Of a DNA stretch of 24,000 nt, positions 3,740 to 21,291 are shown piece after piece. Each line of letters starts with the position of its first letter. Position 1 is the stretch's first letter. This DNA comes from an uncultured bacterium (GTDB lineage Bacteria; Patescibacteriota; Minisyncoccia; Phycocordibacterales; CAJBMK01). The stretch is taken from contig CAJBMK010000052.1 in assembly GCA_903954165.1 (NCBI GenBank), forward strand, positions 11,950-35,949, given 5' to 3'. The notes beneath the pieces were generated by a model that was not told the origin of the DNA, ran no database searches, and saw only the letters and a list, made by a program, of their open reading frames with translations. The position numbers were made by a program, and so were the translations under genes.

Positions 3740-3934
3740 ATATATAGTATAGCAGAAAGGTATCATAAGGGGAGATTGTGTAAAGTGGCGTATGGTTTTT
3801 GTTGTTGGTGTGCTATGTCCCACAGTGTAAATATTTGCCTTTTTCCGTATTCTTTGGTATTGTTTCTTCACTCAGTTAACATAGTATTAATTTAATCAGT
3901 GGCGGTGCTCTCACACCAAAACTAATAATTCACG

Positions 3935-4210
3935 ATGGCAATTACATCATCAGCAGTCAAAGCCCTCCGGGCATCAAAGCGCAAGCGAGTTTTTAACGTC
4001 CGCCGTATGGACGCGGTTAAAGATGTCACCAAGGAAATCAAGAAGCTTGTTTCCGAAGGTAAAAAAGCAGATGCTCAGGTAAAACTCAGTGCCGCATACA
4101 AGGCAATTGATAAGGCCGCAAAAATGTTCTCAATCAACAAGAATTCCGCTTCCCGCAAGAAATCCCGTCTCGCCGCAATCATCAGGAAAGGAGAAACAAA
4201 GAAGAAATAA
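3935..4210 (+). CDS. rpsT: 30S ribosomal protein S20
   Basis: 91-aa basic protein. The N-terminus SSAVKALRASKRKRVFNVRRMDAVKDVTKEIKKL and the ...AYKAIDKAAK... block are typical of S20. Confidence 0.9.
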   Translation: MAITSSAVKALRASKRKRVFNVRRMDAVKDVTKEIKKLVSEGKKADAQVKLSAAYKAIDKAAKMFSINKNSASRKKSRLAAIIRKGETKKK

Positions 4211-4220
4211 ACACTCAAAA

Positions 4221-4252
4221 AAACCGCCCGCATACAAATGCCGGCGGTTTTT
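4221..4252 (+). terminator. Rho-independent terminator after rpsT
   Basis: accgcc (4223-4228) pairs with ggcggt (4243-4248). An A-run precedes it and ttttt follows. Confidence 0.6.
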
Positions 4253-4309
4253 CGTTCGCTTGCCAGAAACCAAAAAATGACGTAAGCTACCAGTTGTCGG
4301 AGATAGAAT

Positions 4310-4381
4310 CTCCTCGTCGTTCAATGGATAGGACGCAAGATTGCGGATCTTGCAATGTAGGTTCGATTCCTACCGAGGGGA
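4310..4381 (+). tRNA. tRNA-Arg (anticodon GCG), no encoded CCA
   Basis: Hand-folded cloverleaf. Acceptor ctcctcg/cgagggg (one U-G pair). D arm gttc-aatggata-ggac. Anticodon arm caaga-ttGCGga-tcttg. Variable region caat. T arm gtagg-ttcgatt-cctac. Discriminator a at 4381. Confidence 0.85.
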
Positions 4382-4549
4382 CAAAATACAAAAATGACTT
4401 CCATGATTGGAAGTCATTTTTGTATTTTGTCCCCTCGAGCAAGTGCCGGGTGGCACTTGCGGGTAGGAATCGAAGCCCGATTGAGCATTTTATTGAGCGT
4501 CTTCGCGAAAAGAAAATCCAATCGGGGTACTGAACCTGTAAGGTTCGAA
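4382..4549 (+). repeat. tRNA-3'-flank structured element, scaffold type 1, matched to tRNA-Arg(GCG) (copy A1)
   Basis: H1 is a perfect 27-bp hairpin, 4377-4403/4408-4434, extended by cga/tcg. H2 is gcaagtgcc/ggcacttgc at 4439-4447/4452-4460. gtaggaatcgaa (4463-4474) is the reverse complement of the tRNA T-loop and T-stem at 4362-4373. P3 is cccgattg/caatcggg at 4476-4483/4519-4526 and encloses a hairpin tipped gcg-tctt-cgc. The 3' module gtactgaacctgtaaggttcgaa lies at 4527-4549. Confidence 0.7.
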
Positions 4550-4714
4550 TCCCTCAGTGCCCACAACAAAAACGGCTATCGTGCTGTTTTTTTGCGGGCG
4601 CTAGCAAAGCGTCTGCACGCTATGCGCGAGGGATTCGAAAGGGTTCTCCGTTATATCTTAGAAATTCTTATTTCTAAGATATCGGAAACCCGTACTGAAC
4701 CTGTAAGGTTCGAA
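4550..4714 (+). repeat. tRNA-3'-flank structured element, scaffold type 2, matched to tRNA-Val, nested in the tRNA-Arg locus (copy A2)
   Basis: It starts with tccctcagtgcccaca, which is 15/16 identical to the tRNA-Val 3' end at 21041-21056. Anti-Val segments are gggcgct (4596-4602) and gagggattcgaa (4628-4639), split by H2 at 4604-4625. P3 is gggttctccg/cggaaaccc. P4 is the 13-bp hairpin at 4653-4682. It ends with a second copy of gtactgaacctgtaaggttcgaa (4692-4714). The decayed tRNA-Arg tail cttcctaccgac follows at 4715-4726. Confidence 0.7.
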
Positions 4715-4795
4715 CTTCCTACCGACATATTCGGTAATCAATAATGTTATTTTTTTCTCTTCCACCCCTCTGTCAAATTTGTTATTGTTCTCCGT

Positions 4796-5743
4796 ATGTT
4801 AACCAAACGACAAGAAGCCGAGCTGGTCACCGCTGTCCAAGGTAGAGGAGAGATTCCGCTGAAGTTTGCCTATATCGGAGATGGTGCGAAAAATTGGGAT
4901 ACTATTGCAAAAGAGAGAAGTGTAACTTCTGGCGGTATAAACTCAACTGAAGCAAGTCTCTTAAAAAGACGGTTGAATGATTTTGTATCAACGTTGAAAA
5001 GTGATAAGGGGATTAATATTGTCGATATTGGTTGTGGAAACGGCGTGCCCGCTATCCCTGTTTTACAGTATCTATCTGAGAGAGGTATTCCTTTTGCCTA
5101 TGTACCAATGGATATTAGTCAGGAAATGCTTGATTTGGCTATTGTTACTATTAAAACAAGGTTTCCAAATGTGATCTGCAAGCCGTTTCAGATGGATTTT
5201 GAATTAGGACAGTTTTCAGATGTGATGTATGAAATAAAAAAAGATGGTTCGGCTAATCTAATGTTGTTTTTGGGAAGTACGCTTGGAAATCATTCTGATT
5301 TAAGTCGTGTGCTCACTAATTTTCGCGATTCGATGACATCAAAAGATTATTTAATTGTCGGTGTAGAGCTAACCAATCTTGCAAAAATAAACAAGATAAT
5401 TCCACATTACGAAGGGTTGCAGATTAATATGTTTGTTGGTCATACATTGCGATACTTACATATTTCAGAAGGTGTGTTTACGTGTGGAGTATCGTGGAAT
5501 GACAAATTGTCTCAAATTGAAATGAGGGCAAATTTTACAGGCGATATTCGTGCCGAAATTGGAGGAGATTCATTTTTGATTGAAAAAGGTGAGAGCATTC
5601 TTTTGGCTCGATCGATTAAATTTACAGAATATACGGTCACAAAACTTTTCTCTGATGTAGGATTTAGAACTGAATTGCTAACAACTTCAGAAGATAGGGG
5701 ATATATCCTTACAATGGTTCAACCAACAAGGTACAGTATTTAA
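4796..5743 (+). CDS. SAM-dependent methyltransferase of the EgtD-like (histidine N-alpha-methyltransferase, Methyltransf_33) family
   Basis: 315-aa ORF. IVDIGCGNG is SAM motif I. YVPMDISQEML, LFLGSTLGNH, IVGVELTN and WNDKLSQIEMRANF align by eye with the conserved EgtD blocks (YxPxDVS, FLGSTIGN, LGTDL, WNxxxxRIEM). Confidence 0.7.
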   Translation: MLTKRQEAELVTAVQGRGEIPLKFAYIGDGAKNWDTIAKERSVTSGGINSTEASLLKRRLNDFVSTLKSDKGINIVDIGCGNGVPAIPVLQYLSERGIPFAYVPMDISQEMLDLAIVTIKTRFPNVICKPFQMDFELGQFSDVMYEIKKDGSANLMLFLGSTLGNHSDLSRVLTNFRDSMTSKDYLIVGVELTNLAKINKIIPHYEGLQINMFVGHTLRYLHISEGVFTCGVSWNDKLSQIEMRANFTGDIRAEIGGDSFLIEKGESILLARSIKFTEYTVTKLFSDVGFRTELLTTSEDRGYILTMVQPTRYSI

Positions 5744-11697: not shown

Positions 11698-11834
11698 GTG
11701 CGAATTTGTTACATAAACGTCTAATAAGAATCTAGGTTTATGAATTAGTTATATCAAAATTAGACTCTTTAAACAATCTAAAAAACAGTGGGGGGTTCGA
11801 ATTATATACAGAATGGATATCCGACAAATGTATA

Positions 11835-12016
11835 AGGTGCGCCGATTACATCAATAGGTACTTTTTGATTTTATTTTCGTCTGGGAAGACTCAATAAAAT
11901 AGCGAAAAGTCTTTCGAATCTCACGCGCAAGCAATGCGGGCGGATTGCTTGCTCTCATCCGCCTAAAAAATCAGCACGCGTGGAGTGTGTGATTTTTAAT
12001 AGCGGAGAATGTTGGT
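11835..12016 (-). repeat. tRNA-3'-flank structured element, scaffold type 2, Ser-matched, detached from any tRNA (copy S3)
   Basis: Read on the minus strand: attaaaaatcacacactccacgcgtgctgatttttt (H1), ggcggatgaga, H2 gcaagcaat/attgcttgc, gcgtgagattcgaa, P3 actttt/aaaagt, and P4 attttatt/aataaaat tipped gtct-tccc-agac. About 11912-12010 is a near copy of about 14233-14325. The 3' module is degenerate. Confidence 0.6.
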
Positions 12017-12068: not shown

Positions 12069-14054
12069 TTATTTAAAAATATACTCTCCTTTAAATACTT
12101 CAAACTTCAAAACTTCCTTTTCTTGCATTTCGGTTTCTGCTATTTTTGTTAATTTTATTTTGTACTGTTTGCATATATCTTCTAATAAATCATAATTACC
12201 TAAATCGGTAGAAAATCCAATCAAAATTTCACCATTCTGTTTTAAGTATTTCTTACAATCCTTTAAATATTTTCTTATTGCACGATAACCGGCATCAAAA
12301 AATTGAGCGTCTTCCATTGTTATGTTTGTTCCCGGGTCCATAAAACCAAATGGCATAGCCCAAAAAATCACATCAAATTTTTCTGTTTCCGGTATACCGT
12401 CCAATACATCACCGCTCGTGGCCTTGATTCTATCTTCTACTCCAATTAGCTTTGCGTTGTATAAAGTATTCTCCGGGGCAAATGGATTTATGTCTGTTGC
12501 AAAAATCTCTAAGCCGCTATTTTCTTTTGCAAGATAACAAGAAATAATTCCTGACCCGCATCCAACTTCGCAGAAATATTTCTTATCTTTAATAAGGCCG
12601 TTTACAACTTCTGCATACCACGTTGTTGATGGGAAGTATGATGGATTAAAAACTGCGGGGTGCACAGAATATGTGCTACCAAGAATCGTTGCGTTTACCC
12701 AATCCTCCTTTTTGTTTTGATTTTGGAAGGTTCTTGTTTGTTCTATTCCTGCTTGTATTGGATCATCAAAACGAATTAACTGCGTTAGGTATGTTTTTAT
12801 TTTATCAGTATCAATATCGCCATTTGTTTTTAATTTTGTTTCTGCGTCAATGGAAAAATTAATCTTGAAATATCTTCGTAATTCAAAGTAGTTATTTAAA
12901 TCATCCGGTCCAAATCCCCCAAAAATTGCAATGTCGTTTAGGTCGTATGTTAATAAATTATTTATTTTGCTAATTAAATTTTCTTTGCTTTCCTGAATAC
13001 CTTTTCCTTTGCTATTGTCTAGTAATATAAATGCTTTATTGTCTTTAATTAACGTTCTAAAATTCTCGTCTTCGATTAAATGGATATTTTCATCATCAAG
13101 CGGAATATCCGCCAAAAAGTTCTCAGTAACATACTTTACGAAGCGTAAGTTATCTTCTGTATTAAAATCGTTTGTTTGTAAATACTTTACAAAAGGTAAC
13201 TCATTTTTAATTCTTTCTGTGTCTAGGATTTGATTGTTTGAATAGGTATATGAAAAATGTAAGATAGGAACGAATCCCTCATAAAATTCGCACACCTTAA
13301 AAATATCCTCTACATTTTTAAGTTTTTCTTTATTTTGAAAATCCCTTGAATCAAATTGTACCCCTATACAGATTTTTAATAGGGGATCTTTTTTCTTATT
13401 TTTCAAAAACTCGCCTATTTCTTCGACGGTTTGAGGTTTGTCTGCGTGGAACTGATAGAAATAATAGCTTACTTCTTGGCTGAAAAAATGTTTAAATTTA
13501 GATTTTTTTGTCTCGAAATATTTTTTATTTACATCATTTAATCCCACAATTAAAGACCTTCTTTCAACGATCTCAATTCCAGTCTTTGCAATTTCGGAAA
13601 CTTTCGACGGATTGTTTGTTAAAAGAATTATTTGATTTACACCGAGGTCATTTAAGGCGACTTTGACCATCTCATATGTTCTTTCATCCGGGTTGTGTCC
13701 AAGCATTACGTTTGCCTCAAACGTATCATAACCTTTTGCCTGTAGTTTGTACGCTTTTATTTTTTCATATAGTCCGATACCGCGACCTTCCTGTCTTAAA
13801 TAAATCACACATCCGTTTCCGTTTTTTTGTATTTCAATCAAGGCTGTCTCAAGCTGTTCTCCACAGTCACATTGTAGGCTTTGAAAAACATCTCCCGTCA
13901 TGCATTCACTATGAACTCTGGTTAAAATCGGCTCTTTTGGATTAAGATGCTCGGTATAAACCACAACGGTTTCTTTACCGTGATTTTCCGCATATACGCG
14001 AAAGTTAAATTTTCCTAATTTAGTATTTATAAGTGATTCTGAAAATTTCTTCAT
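12069..14054 (-). CDS. Three-domain fusion: GTP cyclohydrolase II (RibA) + TrpF/PRAI-like TIM-barrel domain + class I SAM-dependent methyltransferase
   Basis: 661-aa ORF. Residues ~1-195 align with RibA along their length: RVHSECMTGDVFQSLQCDCGEQL carries the zinc Cys triad, and RQEGRGIGLYEKIKAYKLQ, GYDTFEAN, DERTY and LLTNNPSKV also match. The middle domain has KICIG, ILLDNSKGKG, IAIFGGFGPDDL and FSIDAETKLKTNGDIDTDKIKTYL. These mirror the PRAI blocks KICG, LLD..GGSG, LSGGL.PENV and VDVSSGVE..G.KD..KI..F. The C-terminus has VGCGSG (motif I), ATDINP, and IFWAMPFG at the position of the NPPY-type motif IV. Confidence 0.8.
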   Translation of the reverse strand: MKKFSESLINTKLGKFNFRVYAENHGKETVVVYTEHLNPKEPILTRVHSECMTGDVFQSLQCDCGEQLETALIEIQKNGNGCVIYLRQEGRGIGLYEKIKAYKLQAKGYDTFEANVMLGHNPDERTYEMVKVALNDLGVNQIILLTNNPSKVSEIAKTGIEIVERRSLIVGLNDVNKKYFETKKSKFKHFFSQEVSYYFYQFHADKPQTVEEIGEFLKNKKKDPLLKICIGVQFDSRDFQNKEKLKNVEDIFKVCEFYEGFVPILHFSYTYSNNQILDTERIKNELPFVKYLQTNDFNTEDNLRFVKYVTENFLADIPLDDENIHLIEDENFRTLIKDNKAFILLDNSKGKGIQESKENLISKINNLLTYDLNDIAIFGGFGPDDLNNYFELRRYFKINFSIDAETKLKTNGDIDTDKIKTYLTQLIRFDDPIQAGIEQTRTFQNQNKKEDWVNATILGSTYSVHPAVFNPSYFPSTTWYAEVVNGLIKDKKYFCEVGCGSGIISCYLAKENSGLEIFATDINPFAPENTLYNAKLIGVEDRIKATSGDVLDGIPETEKFDVIFWAMPFGFMDPGTNITMEDAQFFDAGYRAIRKYLKDCKKYLKQNGEILIGFSTDLGNYDLLEDICKQYKIKLTKIAETEMQEKEVLKFEVFKGEYIFK

Positions 14055-14127: not shown

Positions 14128-14316
14128 TGGTGGAGGAGGTGAGACCGCGAGTACGCTTTTCGAAGCTTACAGCTTCAGTACAGGTTTCCCATTTTTTCAC
14201 GATAGGAATCGCTCAAAAATAGGGGAGAACCTTTTCGAATCTCACGCGCAAGCGAAGCAGTTCGCTTGCTCTCCTCCGTCTAAAAAATCAGCACGCGTAG
14301 GGTGTGCGATTTTAAT
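14128..14316 (-). repeat. tRNA-3'-flank structured element, scaffold type 2, Ser-matched (copy S2)
   Basis: Read on the minus strand: H1 aaaatcgcac...gtgctgatttt, gacggaggaga, H2 gcaagcgaa-ctgc-ttcgcttgc, gcgtgagattcgaa, P3 aaggttctcccc/gggaaacct, P4 attttt/aaaaat, and the module gtactgaagctgtaagcttcgaa. A 14-nt insert follows, then the tail tctcacctcctccacca (plus strand 14128-14144). Confidence 0.7.
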
Positions 14317-14500
14317 TGCGGAGGAGGTGAGACCGCGAGTACGCTTTTCGAACGTTACACGTTCAGTACCCCGATTGGATTTTCTCTGCGTTGGGAAACT
14401 TGAGAAAATGCTCAATCAGGCTTCGAATCTCACCCGGAAGTGCTCCCAGCACTTCCTCTCCTCGCGCCAAATCAAAACCGCCCTGAAAGGCGGTTGGATT
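14317..14500 (-). repeat. tRNA-3'-flank structured element, scaffold type 1, Ser-matched (copy S1)
   Basis: Read on the minus strand directly after the tRNA-Ser CCA: H1 aaccgcc-tttcag-ggcggtt (plus 14476-14495), flanked by ccaaatc/gatttgg. Then ggcgcgaggaga, H2 ggaagtgct/agcacttcc (plus 14436-14456), gggtgagattcgaa, P3 cctgattg/caatcggg, and P4 attttctc/gagaaaat tipped gtt-tccc-aac. The module is gtactgaacgtgtaacgttcgaa. A 14-nt insert follows, then the tail tctcacctcctccgca (plus 14317-14332). Confidence 0.7.
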
Positions 14501-15120: not shown

Positions 15121-15585
15121 ATGAAAGACGATATTCAAAAAAAAGTGGATGAAAAAAAAGAAAATGTTTCCGGAAATGTGGAAGCGGTAATTACTGCGCC
15201 GGCCGTAGCAATAGCTCCGGCGGTTCCCGTAACGACACCGGTTGGTGTACTGCCGGTAAAAATTCAATACGATGATTTTCAAAAAGTTGAATTGAGAATC
15301 GGCAAGATTTTGACGGCGGAAAAGGTGGCAAATGCGGATAAGTTGCTTTGCCTGACTGTTGATTTTGCCGAACCGGCACCTCGCCAAATTGTTTCCGGCA
15401 TTTCCATGTTTTTCCCGGACCCTAATGTGCTGGTAGGGAAACATTGTGCTTTTTGTACCAATCTTGCCCCGCGAATTCTTCGTGGTCTGGAAAGTGACGG
15501 CATGATTCTTGCGGTCAGTACGGAAACGGTGTTTTCTCTGATGGAGGTGCCGACAACTATTCCCGCGGGAACAAAACTAAAATAA
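15121..15585 (+). CDS. tRNA-binding domain protein (CsaA / EMAP-II-like OB fold)
   Basis: 154-aa ORF. FQKVELRIGKILTAEKVANADKLLCLTVDF...QIVSGI...VGKHCAFCTNLAPRILRGLESDGMILA matches the tRNA_bind domain found in CsaA and at MetRS/PheRS C-termini. Confidence 0.75.
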   Translation: MKDDIQKKVDEKKENVSGNVEAVITAPAVAIAPAVPVTTPVGVLPVKIQYDDFQKVELRIGKILTAEKVANADKLLCLTVDFAEPAPRQIVSGISMFFPDPNVLVGKHCAFCTNLAPRILRGLESDGMILAVSTETVFSLMEVPTTIPAGTKLK

Positions 15586-19110: not shown

Positions 19111-19280
19111 CAATTAAAAAACCGACGATAAGTCGGTTTTTTAATTGTGCCCCCAGAGAAAGCGCCTGATGGCGCTTTCGCCAGGAATCGAAGCCCGATT
19201 GAGCTTCGTTTTGAGTGTCTTCACGAAAAAACGAACCAATCGGGGTACTGACCGAGTAACGGTCGAACTTCCTGTTGGGT
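19111..19280 (+). repeat. tRNA-3'-flank structured element, scaffold type 1, matched to tRNA-Arg(UCU) (copy B, cleanest prototype)
   Basis: H1 is a perfect 25-bp hairpin at 19102-19126/19132-19156. H2 is gaaagcgcc/ggcgctttc at 19158-19166/19171-19179. caggaatcgaa (19182-19192) is the reverse complement of 19091-19101. P3 is at 19194-19201/19237-19244. P4 is at 19205-19212/19228-19235, tipped gtg-tctt-cac. The module is gtactgaccgagtaacggtcgaa. The decayed tail tcgaacttcctgttgggt lies at 19263-19280. Confidence 0.7.
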
Positions 19281-20980: not shown

Positions 20981-21054
20981 GGGCGCTTAGCTCAGTTGGT
21001 TAGAGCATCTCATTTACACTGAGAGGGTCGGGGGTTCGAATCCCTCAGCGCCCA
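20981..21054 (+). tRNA. tRNA-Val (anticodon UAC), no encoded CCA
   Basis: Acceptor gggcgct/agcgccc. D arm gctc-agttggtta-gagc. Anticodon arm tctca-ttTACac-tgaga. Variable region gggtc. T arm ggggg-ttcgaat-ccctc. Discriminator a at 21054. Confidence 0.9.
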
Positions 21055-21217
21055 CAATAAAAACGGCTATCGTGCCGTTTTTTTGCGGGCGCTAGCAAAG
21101 TGTCTGCACACTTTGCGCGAGGGATTCGAAAGGGTTCTCCGTTATATTTTGGAAATTCCCATTTCCAAAATATCGGAAACCCCTACTGCCGCTGTAAGCG
21201 GAGAATCATTTGTCGGC
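21055..21217 (+). repeat. tRNA-3'-flank structured element, scaffold type 2, matched to tRNA-Val (copy C)
   Basis: H1 is aaaaacggc-tatcgt-gccgttttt (21059-21082). gggcgct (21087-21093) is the reverse complement of the acceptor 3' strand at 21047-21053. H2 is gcaaagtgt-ctgc-acactttgc (21095-21116). gagggattcgaa (21119-21130) is the reverse complement of 21035-21046. P3 is gggttctccg/cggaaaccc. P4 is the 13-bp hairpin at 21144-21173. The module is ctactgccgctgtaagcggagaa. A strongly decayed tail follows. Confidence 0.7.
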
Positions 21218-21254
21218 ATTATTTTCCAGTCCTTTCAAGGACGTCGAAAATATC

Positions 21255-21291
21255 AATTTTGTTGTAATTTTGTTGTAATTTTGTTGTAATT
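21255..21291. repeat. Tandem repeat, 11-nt unit aattttgttgt x 3.4
   Basis: Perfect copies at 21255-21265, 21266-21276 and 21277-21287, plus a partial aatt. Confidence 0.8.

Follow-up and report, generated by a model that had tools for sequence, protein, structure and literature searches.

The stretch of DNA studied here, 24,000 nucleotides of contig CAJBMK010000052.1 from an uncultured bacterium of the Patescibacteria (hereafter the window), carries a gene for tRNA-Arg(GCG) that is followed by two hairpin-rich units and, behind these, by a decayed copy of the tRNA-Arg 3' end (Table 1). Each unit contains two short segments complementary to the 3' end of a tRNA, which is tRNA-Arg in the first unit and tRNA-Val in the second. 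Two units of one element family, rich in hairpins and without genes, thus stand in tandem in the segment 4362-4727. The second unit is of tRNA-Val lineage, and its tail, terminator-like hairpin, anti-acceptor segment and anti-T segment form a single block.

Table 1. Features of the array behind tRNA-Arg(GCG) and of the other units, in window positions. P2, P3 and P4 are hairpins of the units.
Feature	Position	Strand	Remarks
tRNA-Arg(GCG)	4310-4382	+	ARAGORN; Rfam tRNA 56.2 bits
Parts of tRNA-Arg(GCG)	T-loop TTCGATT 4362-4368; T-stem 3' strand 4369-4373; acceptor 3' strand 4374-4380; discriminator 4381	+	
H1, perfect 30-bp palindrome	arms 4374-4403 / 4408-4437	+	repeat scan
Anti-acceptor, unit 1	4430-4437	+	tcccctcg, last 8 nt of H1
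P2, unit 1	4439-4460	+	gcaagtgcc-gggt-ggcacttgc; fold
Anti-T, unit 1	4463-4474	+	gtaggaatcgaa; exact complement of tRNA-Arg T-loop and T-stem 3' strand, 4362-4373
P3, unit 1, long hairpin with type-1 core	4475-4527	+	GCCCGATTGAGC ... CCAATCGGGG; type-1 alignment, covariation, fold
P4, copy 1	4527-4549	+	G-TACTG-AACC-TGTAA-GGTT-C-GAA; 3' end forms T-loop look-alike GGTTCGAA
tRNA-Val-type 3' tail, unit 2	4550-4565	+	tccctcagtgcccaca; 15/16 identical to tRNA-Val 21041-21056
Terminator-like hairpin, unit 2	4566-4593	+	acaaaaacggc-tatcgt-gctgttttttt; alignment with Val-locus unit
Anti-acceptor, unit 2	4596-4602	+	gggcgct; complements tRNA-Val acceptor 3' strand
P2, unit 2	4603-4625	+	compensatory pair against Val-locus copy, gcg/cgc against gtg/cac
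Anti-T, unit 2	4628-4639	+	gagggattcgaa; fits tRNA-Val, not tRNA-Arg
P3, unit 2, long hairpin with type-2 core	4640-4691	+	AGGGTTCTCC ... GGAAACCC; two compensatory pairs against Val-locus copy
P4, copy 2	4692-4714	+	23/23 identical to 4527-4549
Displaced, decayed tRNA-Arg tail	4715-4726	+	c-ttcctaccga-c; ttcctaccga 4716-4725 equals tRNA 4367-4376
Orphan, partly decayed type-2 unit	11830-12000	-	Ser-type anti-T gtgag-attcgaa; no tRNA adjacent
Type-1 then type-2 tandem after tRNA-Ser(TGA)	14129-14500	-	each with 14-nt mini-hairpin linker and Ser tail behind
Type-1 unit after tRNA-Arg(TCT)	19112-19279	+	decayed tail 19268-19279
Type-2 unit after tRNA-Val(TAC), with decayed tail	21056-21218	+	nearest relative of block 4550-4691

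Units of the family are ~140-170 nt long, and the order of their modules is the same in 91 distinct units of both types. A unit begins with a copy of a tRNA 3' tail, from position 60 in the T-loop to 1-4 nt past the discriminator, which is followed in many units, though not in all, by a terminator-like palindrome reaching into the acceptor 3' strand. Then come a segment complementary to the acceptor 3' strand (the anti-acceptor) and the hairpin P2, which has at least 6 bp in 89 of the 91 units; as register shifts defeated an alignment-based consensus fold of P2, per-sequence folding was used instead. Two linker bases lead to a 12-nt exact complement of the T-loop and T-stem 3' strand (the anti-T), ending in A(T/A)TCGAA, and to the long hairpin P3 that sets the type (GCCCGATTGAGC...CCAATCGGGG in type 1, RGGTTCTCC...GGAAACC in type 2). 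The last module comprises TACTG, the hairpin P4 (5 bp, TGTAA loop) and GAA, behind which stands a second tRNA tail, often decayed. Since the 3' end of the unit recreates a T-loop-like (T)TCGAA, with the previous tail coming next, each unit rebuilds its own junction type.

At the tRNA-Arg(GCG) locus both units, within 4383-4714, contain all family modules. H1 of the first is made up of the acceptor 3' strand of tRNA-Arg, the trailer and a terminator-like hairpin, and its arms are longer than the 27 bp given in an earlier note on this DNA. The other coordinates of that note all hold on re-reading and in a repeat scan, namely those of the direct repeat GTACTGAACCTGTAAGGTTCGAA (23/23 identity, spacing 165), the Val tail, the anti-Val segments and the displaced Arg tail. 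Its view that the second unit arrived with its own Val tail and anti-Val segments, directly 3' of the T-loop look-alike GGTTCGAA, and that the Arg tail was thereby displaced, is upheld. The stretch 4542-4707 shares 90% identity with 21033-21198 downstream of tRNA-Val, and gagggattcgaa is a 12/12 complement of 4544-4555. The second unit had also been described as nested, for which we now prefer an ordinary tandem array: the order of type 1 (or type-1-like) before type 2 (or type-2-like) is also found at the Ser locus of the window and at loci L045, L065 and L160. Tandem arrays are common in the family, and those in L059, L064 and L074 hold identical repeat units.

It is hardly credible that 4550-4714 is an assembly chimera of the Arg and Val loci, or that the region codes for the open reading frames (ORFs) 4294-4533 and 4394-4744. 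Such repeats can break assemblies, and the Logan contigs L081 and L082 do stop inside the tRNA/H1 region, but two other assemblies, a MEGAHIT contig (L079) and a scaffold from another study (L080), are 100% identical to the window over the 1100 nt of 3901-5000, insert included. Both were found through an exact-sequence look-up of the adjacent S20 protein and come from different samples and assemblers. From the tail to GGAAACCC the insert differs from the Val-locus unit at 12 of 142 positions, and these differences include three compensatory pairs (one in P2, two in P3) and one change preserving a G-U pair; reads from the Val locus can therefore not have yielded the insert. The type-2 fold was computed on the Val-locus copy (21084-21222) and not on the copy at 4640-4691. 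Mis-assembly, against which the earlier note had advised a check, is thus excluded, and its dismissal of the two ORFs as artefacts is borne out, as they have no Pfam match above cut-off and overlap the tRNA and the covarying hairpins. We consider the artefact and coding readings effectively excluded.

In contigs of one genome per species the type-1 core pattern identified 78 stretches, ~75 of which have the full architecture, the rest being 3 chance matches. All of the ~75 stem from metagenome-assembled genomes (MAGs) of Patescibacteria: Taylorbacteria, Lloydbacteria, Nomurabacteria, Paceibacterota and MAGs labelled Saccharibacteria. The type-2 pattern gave 77 metagenome stretches, of which ~68 are real. 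The element thus has >140 copies across dozens of genomes, the host genomes of the relatives being seen as 8-14-kb pieces only. Scans of viral contigs with both core patterns, as well as phage and plasmid BLAST searches, gave no match. Over the whole window Rfam 15 detected only tRNAs and no family at the units; with E up to 10 on 4280-4780 it gave spurious microRNA and CRISPR-repeat matches to the palindrome only, and units of seven related loci had no Rfam match. Full-text searches of a paper library, core sequence strings included, found no description of the element family.

Several identities were considered and rejected. The unit is no tRNA gene or pseudogene: ARAGORN and the Rfam tRNA model call none, and only the acceptor and T-stem strands are tRNA-derived. 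The likeness of P2 to an anticodon-arm remnant is a chance resemblance confined to tRNA-Arg(GCG), and for the junction strands no hammerhead, K-turn, loop-E or T-loop-motif reading fits by eye (there is, for example, no CUGANGA).

The element family is a modular superfamily. Further element types with a similar logic and different cores were noted in L062, L020, L035, L053, L073 and L076 and at L083:3760-3870, for example GGGGTCGNG...hairpin...GTGACCGAA followed by a tail, or a short type-2-like unit with P4 ACCCGCGGCGGTAGCCGAGA. An Rfam LOOT RNA (RF03000, 73.8 bits) was seen at another Patescibacteria locus, L066:479-607 (+).

The 23-mer that brackets the insert is the element's own conserved P4 module and not a classical target-site duplication of fixed length. 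Its pattern, TACTG-N5-GTAA-N5-GAA, has 6 exact matches in the window and 8 when two mismatches are allowed, against 1.96 expected, and none of 100 shuffles reached 8. About 14 of the 23 positions (TACTG, T-GTAA, C-GAA) are invariant or nearly so family-wide, in part owing to the patterns used for retrieval, and the real information of the 23-mer is therefore its 4-bp stem AACC/GGTT. The P4 stem covaries across the family, and AACC is found in 9 of 84 type-1 copies and in 2 of 74 type-2 copies, the latter being the window unit and one in L160. Both lie directly 3' of an AACC unit with a type-1-like core; the neighbour in L160 was left untyped by the script, its core being slightly different. 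Since AACC occurs in type 2 only directly behind such a unit, the duplication of the 23-mer is real, and the type-2 unit acquired the P4 of the resident unit. Adjacent P4 pairs are identical in 7 of 16 cases, and in L160 the frame common to the neighbours extends over ~75 nt (P4, tail, hairpin and anti-acceptor), so that only the body from P2 through anti-T to P3 differs. Duplication of the junction on insertion and local conversion between neighbours explain the shared P4 equally well. Of the earlier proposal that the direct repeat marks an insertion, the duplication remains; as a classical insertion mark the repeat fails, since it is a P4 module and since the frame shared in L160 is ~75 nt long.

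The breakpoint in the T-loop, first proposed for this locus, is general in the family. Position 60 of the tRNA is where the downstream tail sets in, behind a linker of usually 0 or 2 and occasionally 1 nt; in place of this linker some copies have a 14-nt mini-hairpin that covaries, AAGCGTACTCGCGG, separating P4-GAA from the tail. Mini-hairpin linkers were seen in the window at 14129-14346 (-) and in L015, L019, L025, L065 and L092, with 3-bp stems gcg/cgc, gtg/cac or atg/cgt. In many copies the downstream tail equals the tRNA tail for 14-19 nt, the identity ending sharply 1-4 nt past the discriminator, and it never has a CCA that is absent from the gene. This argues for an event at the DNA level, bounded by the T-loop and the tRNA end, and not for a copy of the mature tRNA; retro-copying was rejected, as no tail has a CCA beyond the gene's own. 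The palindrome TTCGAA or a close variant stands at three places, the tRNA T-loop, the end of the anti-T and the 3' end of the unit. The S20-linked orthologues of tRNA-Arg(GCG) carry a type-1 and a type-2 unit in the window, a different short unit in L083 and a plain terminator in L085 and L086, which shows turnover at an orthologous locus. Because it is absent behind the orthologous tRNA in the latter two related genomes, the element is dispensable.

Direct repeats of the tRNA 3' part that begin in the T-loop, with tail copies that end at the tRNA 3' end, could also be attL/attR scars of integrase islands or prophages that integrated in the T-loop and were later deleted; such repeats are reportedly typical of tyrosine-integrase elements. 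We think this very improbable. What lies between the repeats is 140-170 nt of conserved, covarying structure in >140 copies from dozens of genomes, which is not random deletion debris, no integrase is found near any copy in the 8-14-kb pieces, and the viral, phage and plasmid collections hold nothing similar. The scar reading is effectively excluded.

Covariation was assessed in 64 aligned type-1 copies, where the 23 pairs of P3 and P4 are paired in 96.9% of cases, compared with at most 57% in slid controls. Compensatory cells number 199, against 53 +/- 5.6 in column shuffles, none of 500 of which reached 199. To judge by these alignments, the structure of the element is under selection. On the tRNA-sense strand G-U pairs outnumber A-C pairs (17 vs 6), and this strand is therefore probably the folded one; RNA and single-stranded DNA both fit.

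The match of units to their tRNAs is specific in the controls that were run. Of the five anti-T-stem bases 4.73 fit the unit's own tRNA, and permutation among loci lowers this to 2.84, with 3.11 as the highest value in 1000 permutations (31 distinct T-stems). T-loop and anti-T match perfectly as TTCGAAT/ATTCGAA in 66 units, TTCGATT/AATCGAA in 17 and TTCGAAC/GTTCGAA in 5, and the anti-acceptor fits 8/8 in 45 of 91 units, with 0/91 in the cross-locus control. An anti-T match of 11-12/12 lies within 260 nt downstream of 71 of the 119 tRNAs at the fetched loci, a share biased upward because these loci were chosen for containing a unit, and upstream there are 0. The tRNAs with units represent >15 amino-acid specificities.

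A tRNA-matched fold could alternatively belong to a functional RNA. The units would then be genes for a 'shadow tRNA' rather than primarily mobile DNA, an explanation that we rate as possible though unlikely and that does not exclude the one favoured below. Such an RNA would be transcribed with the tRNA or from its own promoter, its anti-acceptor and anti-T pairing with the downstream tail. The result would be a coaxial stack of acceptor stem and T-stem, with P2 at the place of the D and anticodon arms and the conserved three-way junction at P3-P4 replacing the T-loop. Cut out by RNase P and RNase Z, it could have a role in tRNA metabolism, whether as a decoy, as an adaptor or by mimicking an acceptor stem towards synthetases or the CCA-adding enzyme, and arrays, as well as the Val unit at the Arg locus, would have come about by local duplication and ectopic gene conversion. 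The very stable self-contained fold (-59 to -72 kcal/mol, z-scores -5.8 to -7.6) and the excess of G-U over A-C on the sense strand agree with this, as do the compensatory changes by which unit 2 at the Arg locus kept its stems and the L160 neighbours that differ only in the P2-antiT-P3 body. The closing helix, however, cannot form in many units, those of the window included, in which a perfect antisense is accompanied by a decayed downstream tail. In a set of 49 units the anti-acceptor fits 8/8 in 25 and the acceptor part of the second tail in 22, often different units, and it is the upstream tRNA whose T-loop covaries with the loop part of the anti-T, not the downstream junction with its linker. 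Transcription gives a divided picture: units between tRNA genes without an intervening terminator-like hairpin (L026, L006, L056, L058) are probably co-transcribed and the orphan units of L077, L066 and L065 lie behind a conserved TGnTAGAAT box, with antisense that fits the downstream tail, but a terminator-like hairpin precedes most units, and in the window no internal promoter was seen, simple promoter and terminator scans being uninformative for AT-rich hairpins. The absence of the element from orthologous tRNAs in related genomes, and hence its dispensability, and the failure of ARAGORN and the Rfam tRNA model to recognise the units further speak against a functional RNA.

In L077, L066, L030 and L065 a conserved stretch of ~90 nt, CCGACCCGAGTRCCT...TGCTAGAATAYCCTTACAAGG...GGGGYACTTAACCC...CCGCA, takes the place of the tRNA ~60-150 nt upstream of type-1 units. 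It holds the -10-like TGnTAGAAT box, and Rfam and ARAGORN call nothing in it; it may be the gene of a small RNA, or else a promoter from which the unit is transcribed.

We favour, with a probability of roughly 0.55, the explanation that the units are selfish modular DNA that enters at the TTCGAA of the T-loop, or at its look-alike in a resident unit, and brings a replacement tail. The site of entry would be the palindromic core of the T-loop or the look-alike closing a resident unit, and the replacement tail would keep the tRNA intact; the unit would work as a folded single strand, with the help of an enzyme encoded elsewhere. In its favour are the distribution of the family, the covarying structure, the matching to each tRNA, the junction at position 60, the turnover at the S20-linked locus and, at the Arg locus, the likeness of the block to the Val-locus unit and the AACC stem shared with its neighbour. 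At the Arg locus an Arg-matched type-1 unit would have been resident first. A type-2 block of Val lineage, comprising tail, hairpin, anti-Val segments, P2 and P3, would then have been added at the P4-GAA junction, the resident P4 being duplicated and the old Arg tail pushed to its present place. As the antisense of unit 2 fits the carried Val tail and not the displaced Arg tail, the block from tail to P3 probably travelled together and needed only GGTTCGAA at its destination. This makes unit 2 at the Arg locus the best single clue to the mechanism.

A number of observations weigh against selfish DNA of this kind. No recombinase, transposase or reverse transcriptase was found in the window or in common to the ~75 neighbourhoods, the ORF clusters of which show housekeeping synteny only (FtsA/PilM, ComF-like, CCA-adding enzyme, RuvX). 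An exact search of metagenome contigs for an empty site, that is, a type-1 P4 directly before the Arg tail, gave 0 matches, and a search for sibling genomes by the S20 protein gave relatives that are at best ~70% identical, so that no insertion event was directly observed. What the earlier note had proposed as insertion at the T-loop therefore holds for the generality of the breakpoint, while the mechanism is inferred, neither an empty-site allele nor a transposase or integrase having been seen. L091 and L102, 99.95% identical over 10.7 kb, have two units and one unit, respectively, which as a copy-number polymorphism would speak for turnover but could be due to assembly collapse; in both the 155-nt type-2 units stand behind one tRNA (L091:1-280, L102:1950-2120). 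The heterologous combination of Val unit and Arg locus is unique so far, a loose-pattern scan with 167 candidate units having given no clear second heterologous unit (most candidates were false positives, and the window itself fell below the threshold). The explanation does not account for the gain of a tail and antisense for a new tRNA, and the similarity of P3 within a genome could reflect gene conversion and not transposition. The orphan units that match the downstream tail behind a promoter-like box favour a transcribed, self-contained RNA. Finally, the retrieval patterns partly imposed the invariance of TACTG, GTAA and GAA, though not the covariation or the tRNA matching.

A more specific version of the selfish-DNA explanation, speculative and in our judgement improbable, would make the units protein-less, tRNA-templated homing modules, the fold of which would act as attachment site by analogy with CTX-phage attP(+) or integron attC. 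In the single strand the carried tail would pair with the anti-acceptor and anti-T into a duplex replica of the tRNA 3' end, closing at TTCGAA. A recombinase or HUH enzyme encoded by the host would insert the unit at any T-loop or look-alike, and the module would be re-programmed for another tRNA by local conversion against the tail already in place. If true, these modules would be self-targeting mobile elements of a new class, specific to the candidate phyla radiation (CPR), with their target specificity in short antisense segments.

Seven units lie within the 24 kb of the window, and none of its four tRNA genes lacks one behind it. The orphan type-2 unit lies ~2.3 kb from the tRNA-Ser array and directly downstream of ORF 12069-14054 (-), the 661-aa product of which has an unusual architecture, a GTP cyclohydrolase II domain fused to a C-terminal S-adenosylmethionine (SAM)-methyltransferase domain. 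Near the same array, 15121-15585 (+) encodes a 154-aa protein with a PF01588 tRNA-binding domain (Trbp111/CsaA-like), a domain that L085 and L086 also encode close to their S20/tRNA-Arg locus; the protein could be a partner of tRNA-like RNAs or merely reflect conserved synteny. Just 3' of the tRNA-Val unit the 11-nt repeat ttgttgtaatt occurs three times in tandem (21256-21290, +).

Genomes of CPR/Patescibacteria measure ~1 Mb and are strongly streamlined. In such minimal genomes a gene-less element that restores the tRNA may be a new, safe lifestyle of selfish DNA; alternatively, the units may be an unrecognised class of tRNA-like RNAs. In practice they produce false ORF calls and break assemblies at tRNA loci. 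They could be used as strain markers, and with a covariance model of the family, databases of RNAs and repeats would gain a new entry.

The family shares traits with several known systems. Tyrosine-integrase islands in tRNA genes (P4-like) share with the units insertion at the T-loop, a replacement 3' end, flanking tail repeats and a tRNA that remains functional, and direct repeats of the tRNA 3' end starting in the T-loop are indeed found around the units. Unlike these islands, the units are gene-less and only 140-170 nt long, with antisense copies of the tail and a covarying hairpin core, and form tandem arrays. No tyrosine or serine integrase was seen in the window or the ~75 loci, and the units themselves contain no credible ORF.

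The palindrome-associated transposable elements (PATEs) derived from IS200/IS605, and the repetitive extragenic palindromes (REPs) and bacterial interspersed mosaic elements (BIMEs) with their REP-associated tyrosine transposases (RAYTs), resemble the units in being small, multicopy and intergenic, with strand-specific covarying hairpins and possible movement in trans. Both unit junctions follow (T)TCGAA, much as such elements insert 3' of a tetra- or pentanucleotide; the tail repeat on the flanks could be a carried copy and not a duplication, and the enzyme could be a distant gene. PATE and REP elements, in contrast, neither carry nor duplicate a 14-19-nt tRNA tail and are not tRNA-specific, and their end hairpins resemble each other whereas H1 and P4 of the units are dissimilar; no Y1 transposase was identified in the window or the 8-14-kb pieces. 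With integron attC and CTX-phage attP(+) the units have in common that structure prevails over sequence, that arrays are cassette-like and that a duplex replica of the target is possible, which in the units would be the pairing of tail and anti-tail ending at the palindromic TTCGAA. They differ from attC in that P4 is flanked by TACTG and GAA and not by R''/R' (GTTRRRY) boxes, and in the absence of cargo genes; RYYYAAC ... GTTRRRY boxes with an adjacent IntI/attI were not found, nor was an integrase in the window or the neighbourhoods.

A conserved scaffold with short target-complementary segments is also a property of the IS110 bridge RNA and of group II introns with their exon- and intron-binding sites (EBS/IBS). 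There is, unlike in those systems, no adjacent recombinase or reverse transcriptase, and both segments of a unit pair with one strand, colinearly; the antisense of unit 2 fits the Val tail that it carries, the Arg site being non-complementary. The predicted coaxial acceptor/T-stem stack, copying the tRNA end, recalls the tRNA-like domain (TLD) of tmRNA, viral tRNA-like structures (TLS), YrlA and mascRNA, from which the units differ by a three-way junction in place of the T-loop, by an identity that is matched to each neighbouring tRNA and by the lack of an Rfam or ARAGORN match. BOX, Correia/NEMIS and enterobacterial repetitive intergenic consensus (ERIC) elements are, like the units, short modular intergenic repeats with stable hairpins and variable module number, but are not anchored at tRNAs, lack tail and anti-tail segments and have a different host range. 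The family consists of miniature structured elements targeted at tRNA genes that fail such defining tests of the known groups as could be run, and its tRNA-matched antisense segments, its predicted tRNA-like fold and its restriction to Patescibacteria appear to be new features.

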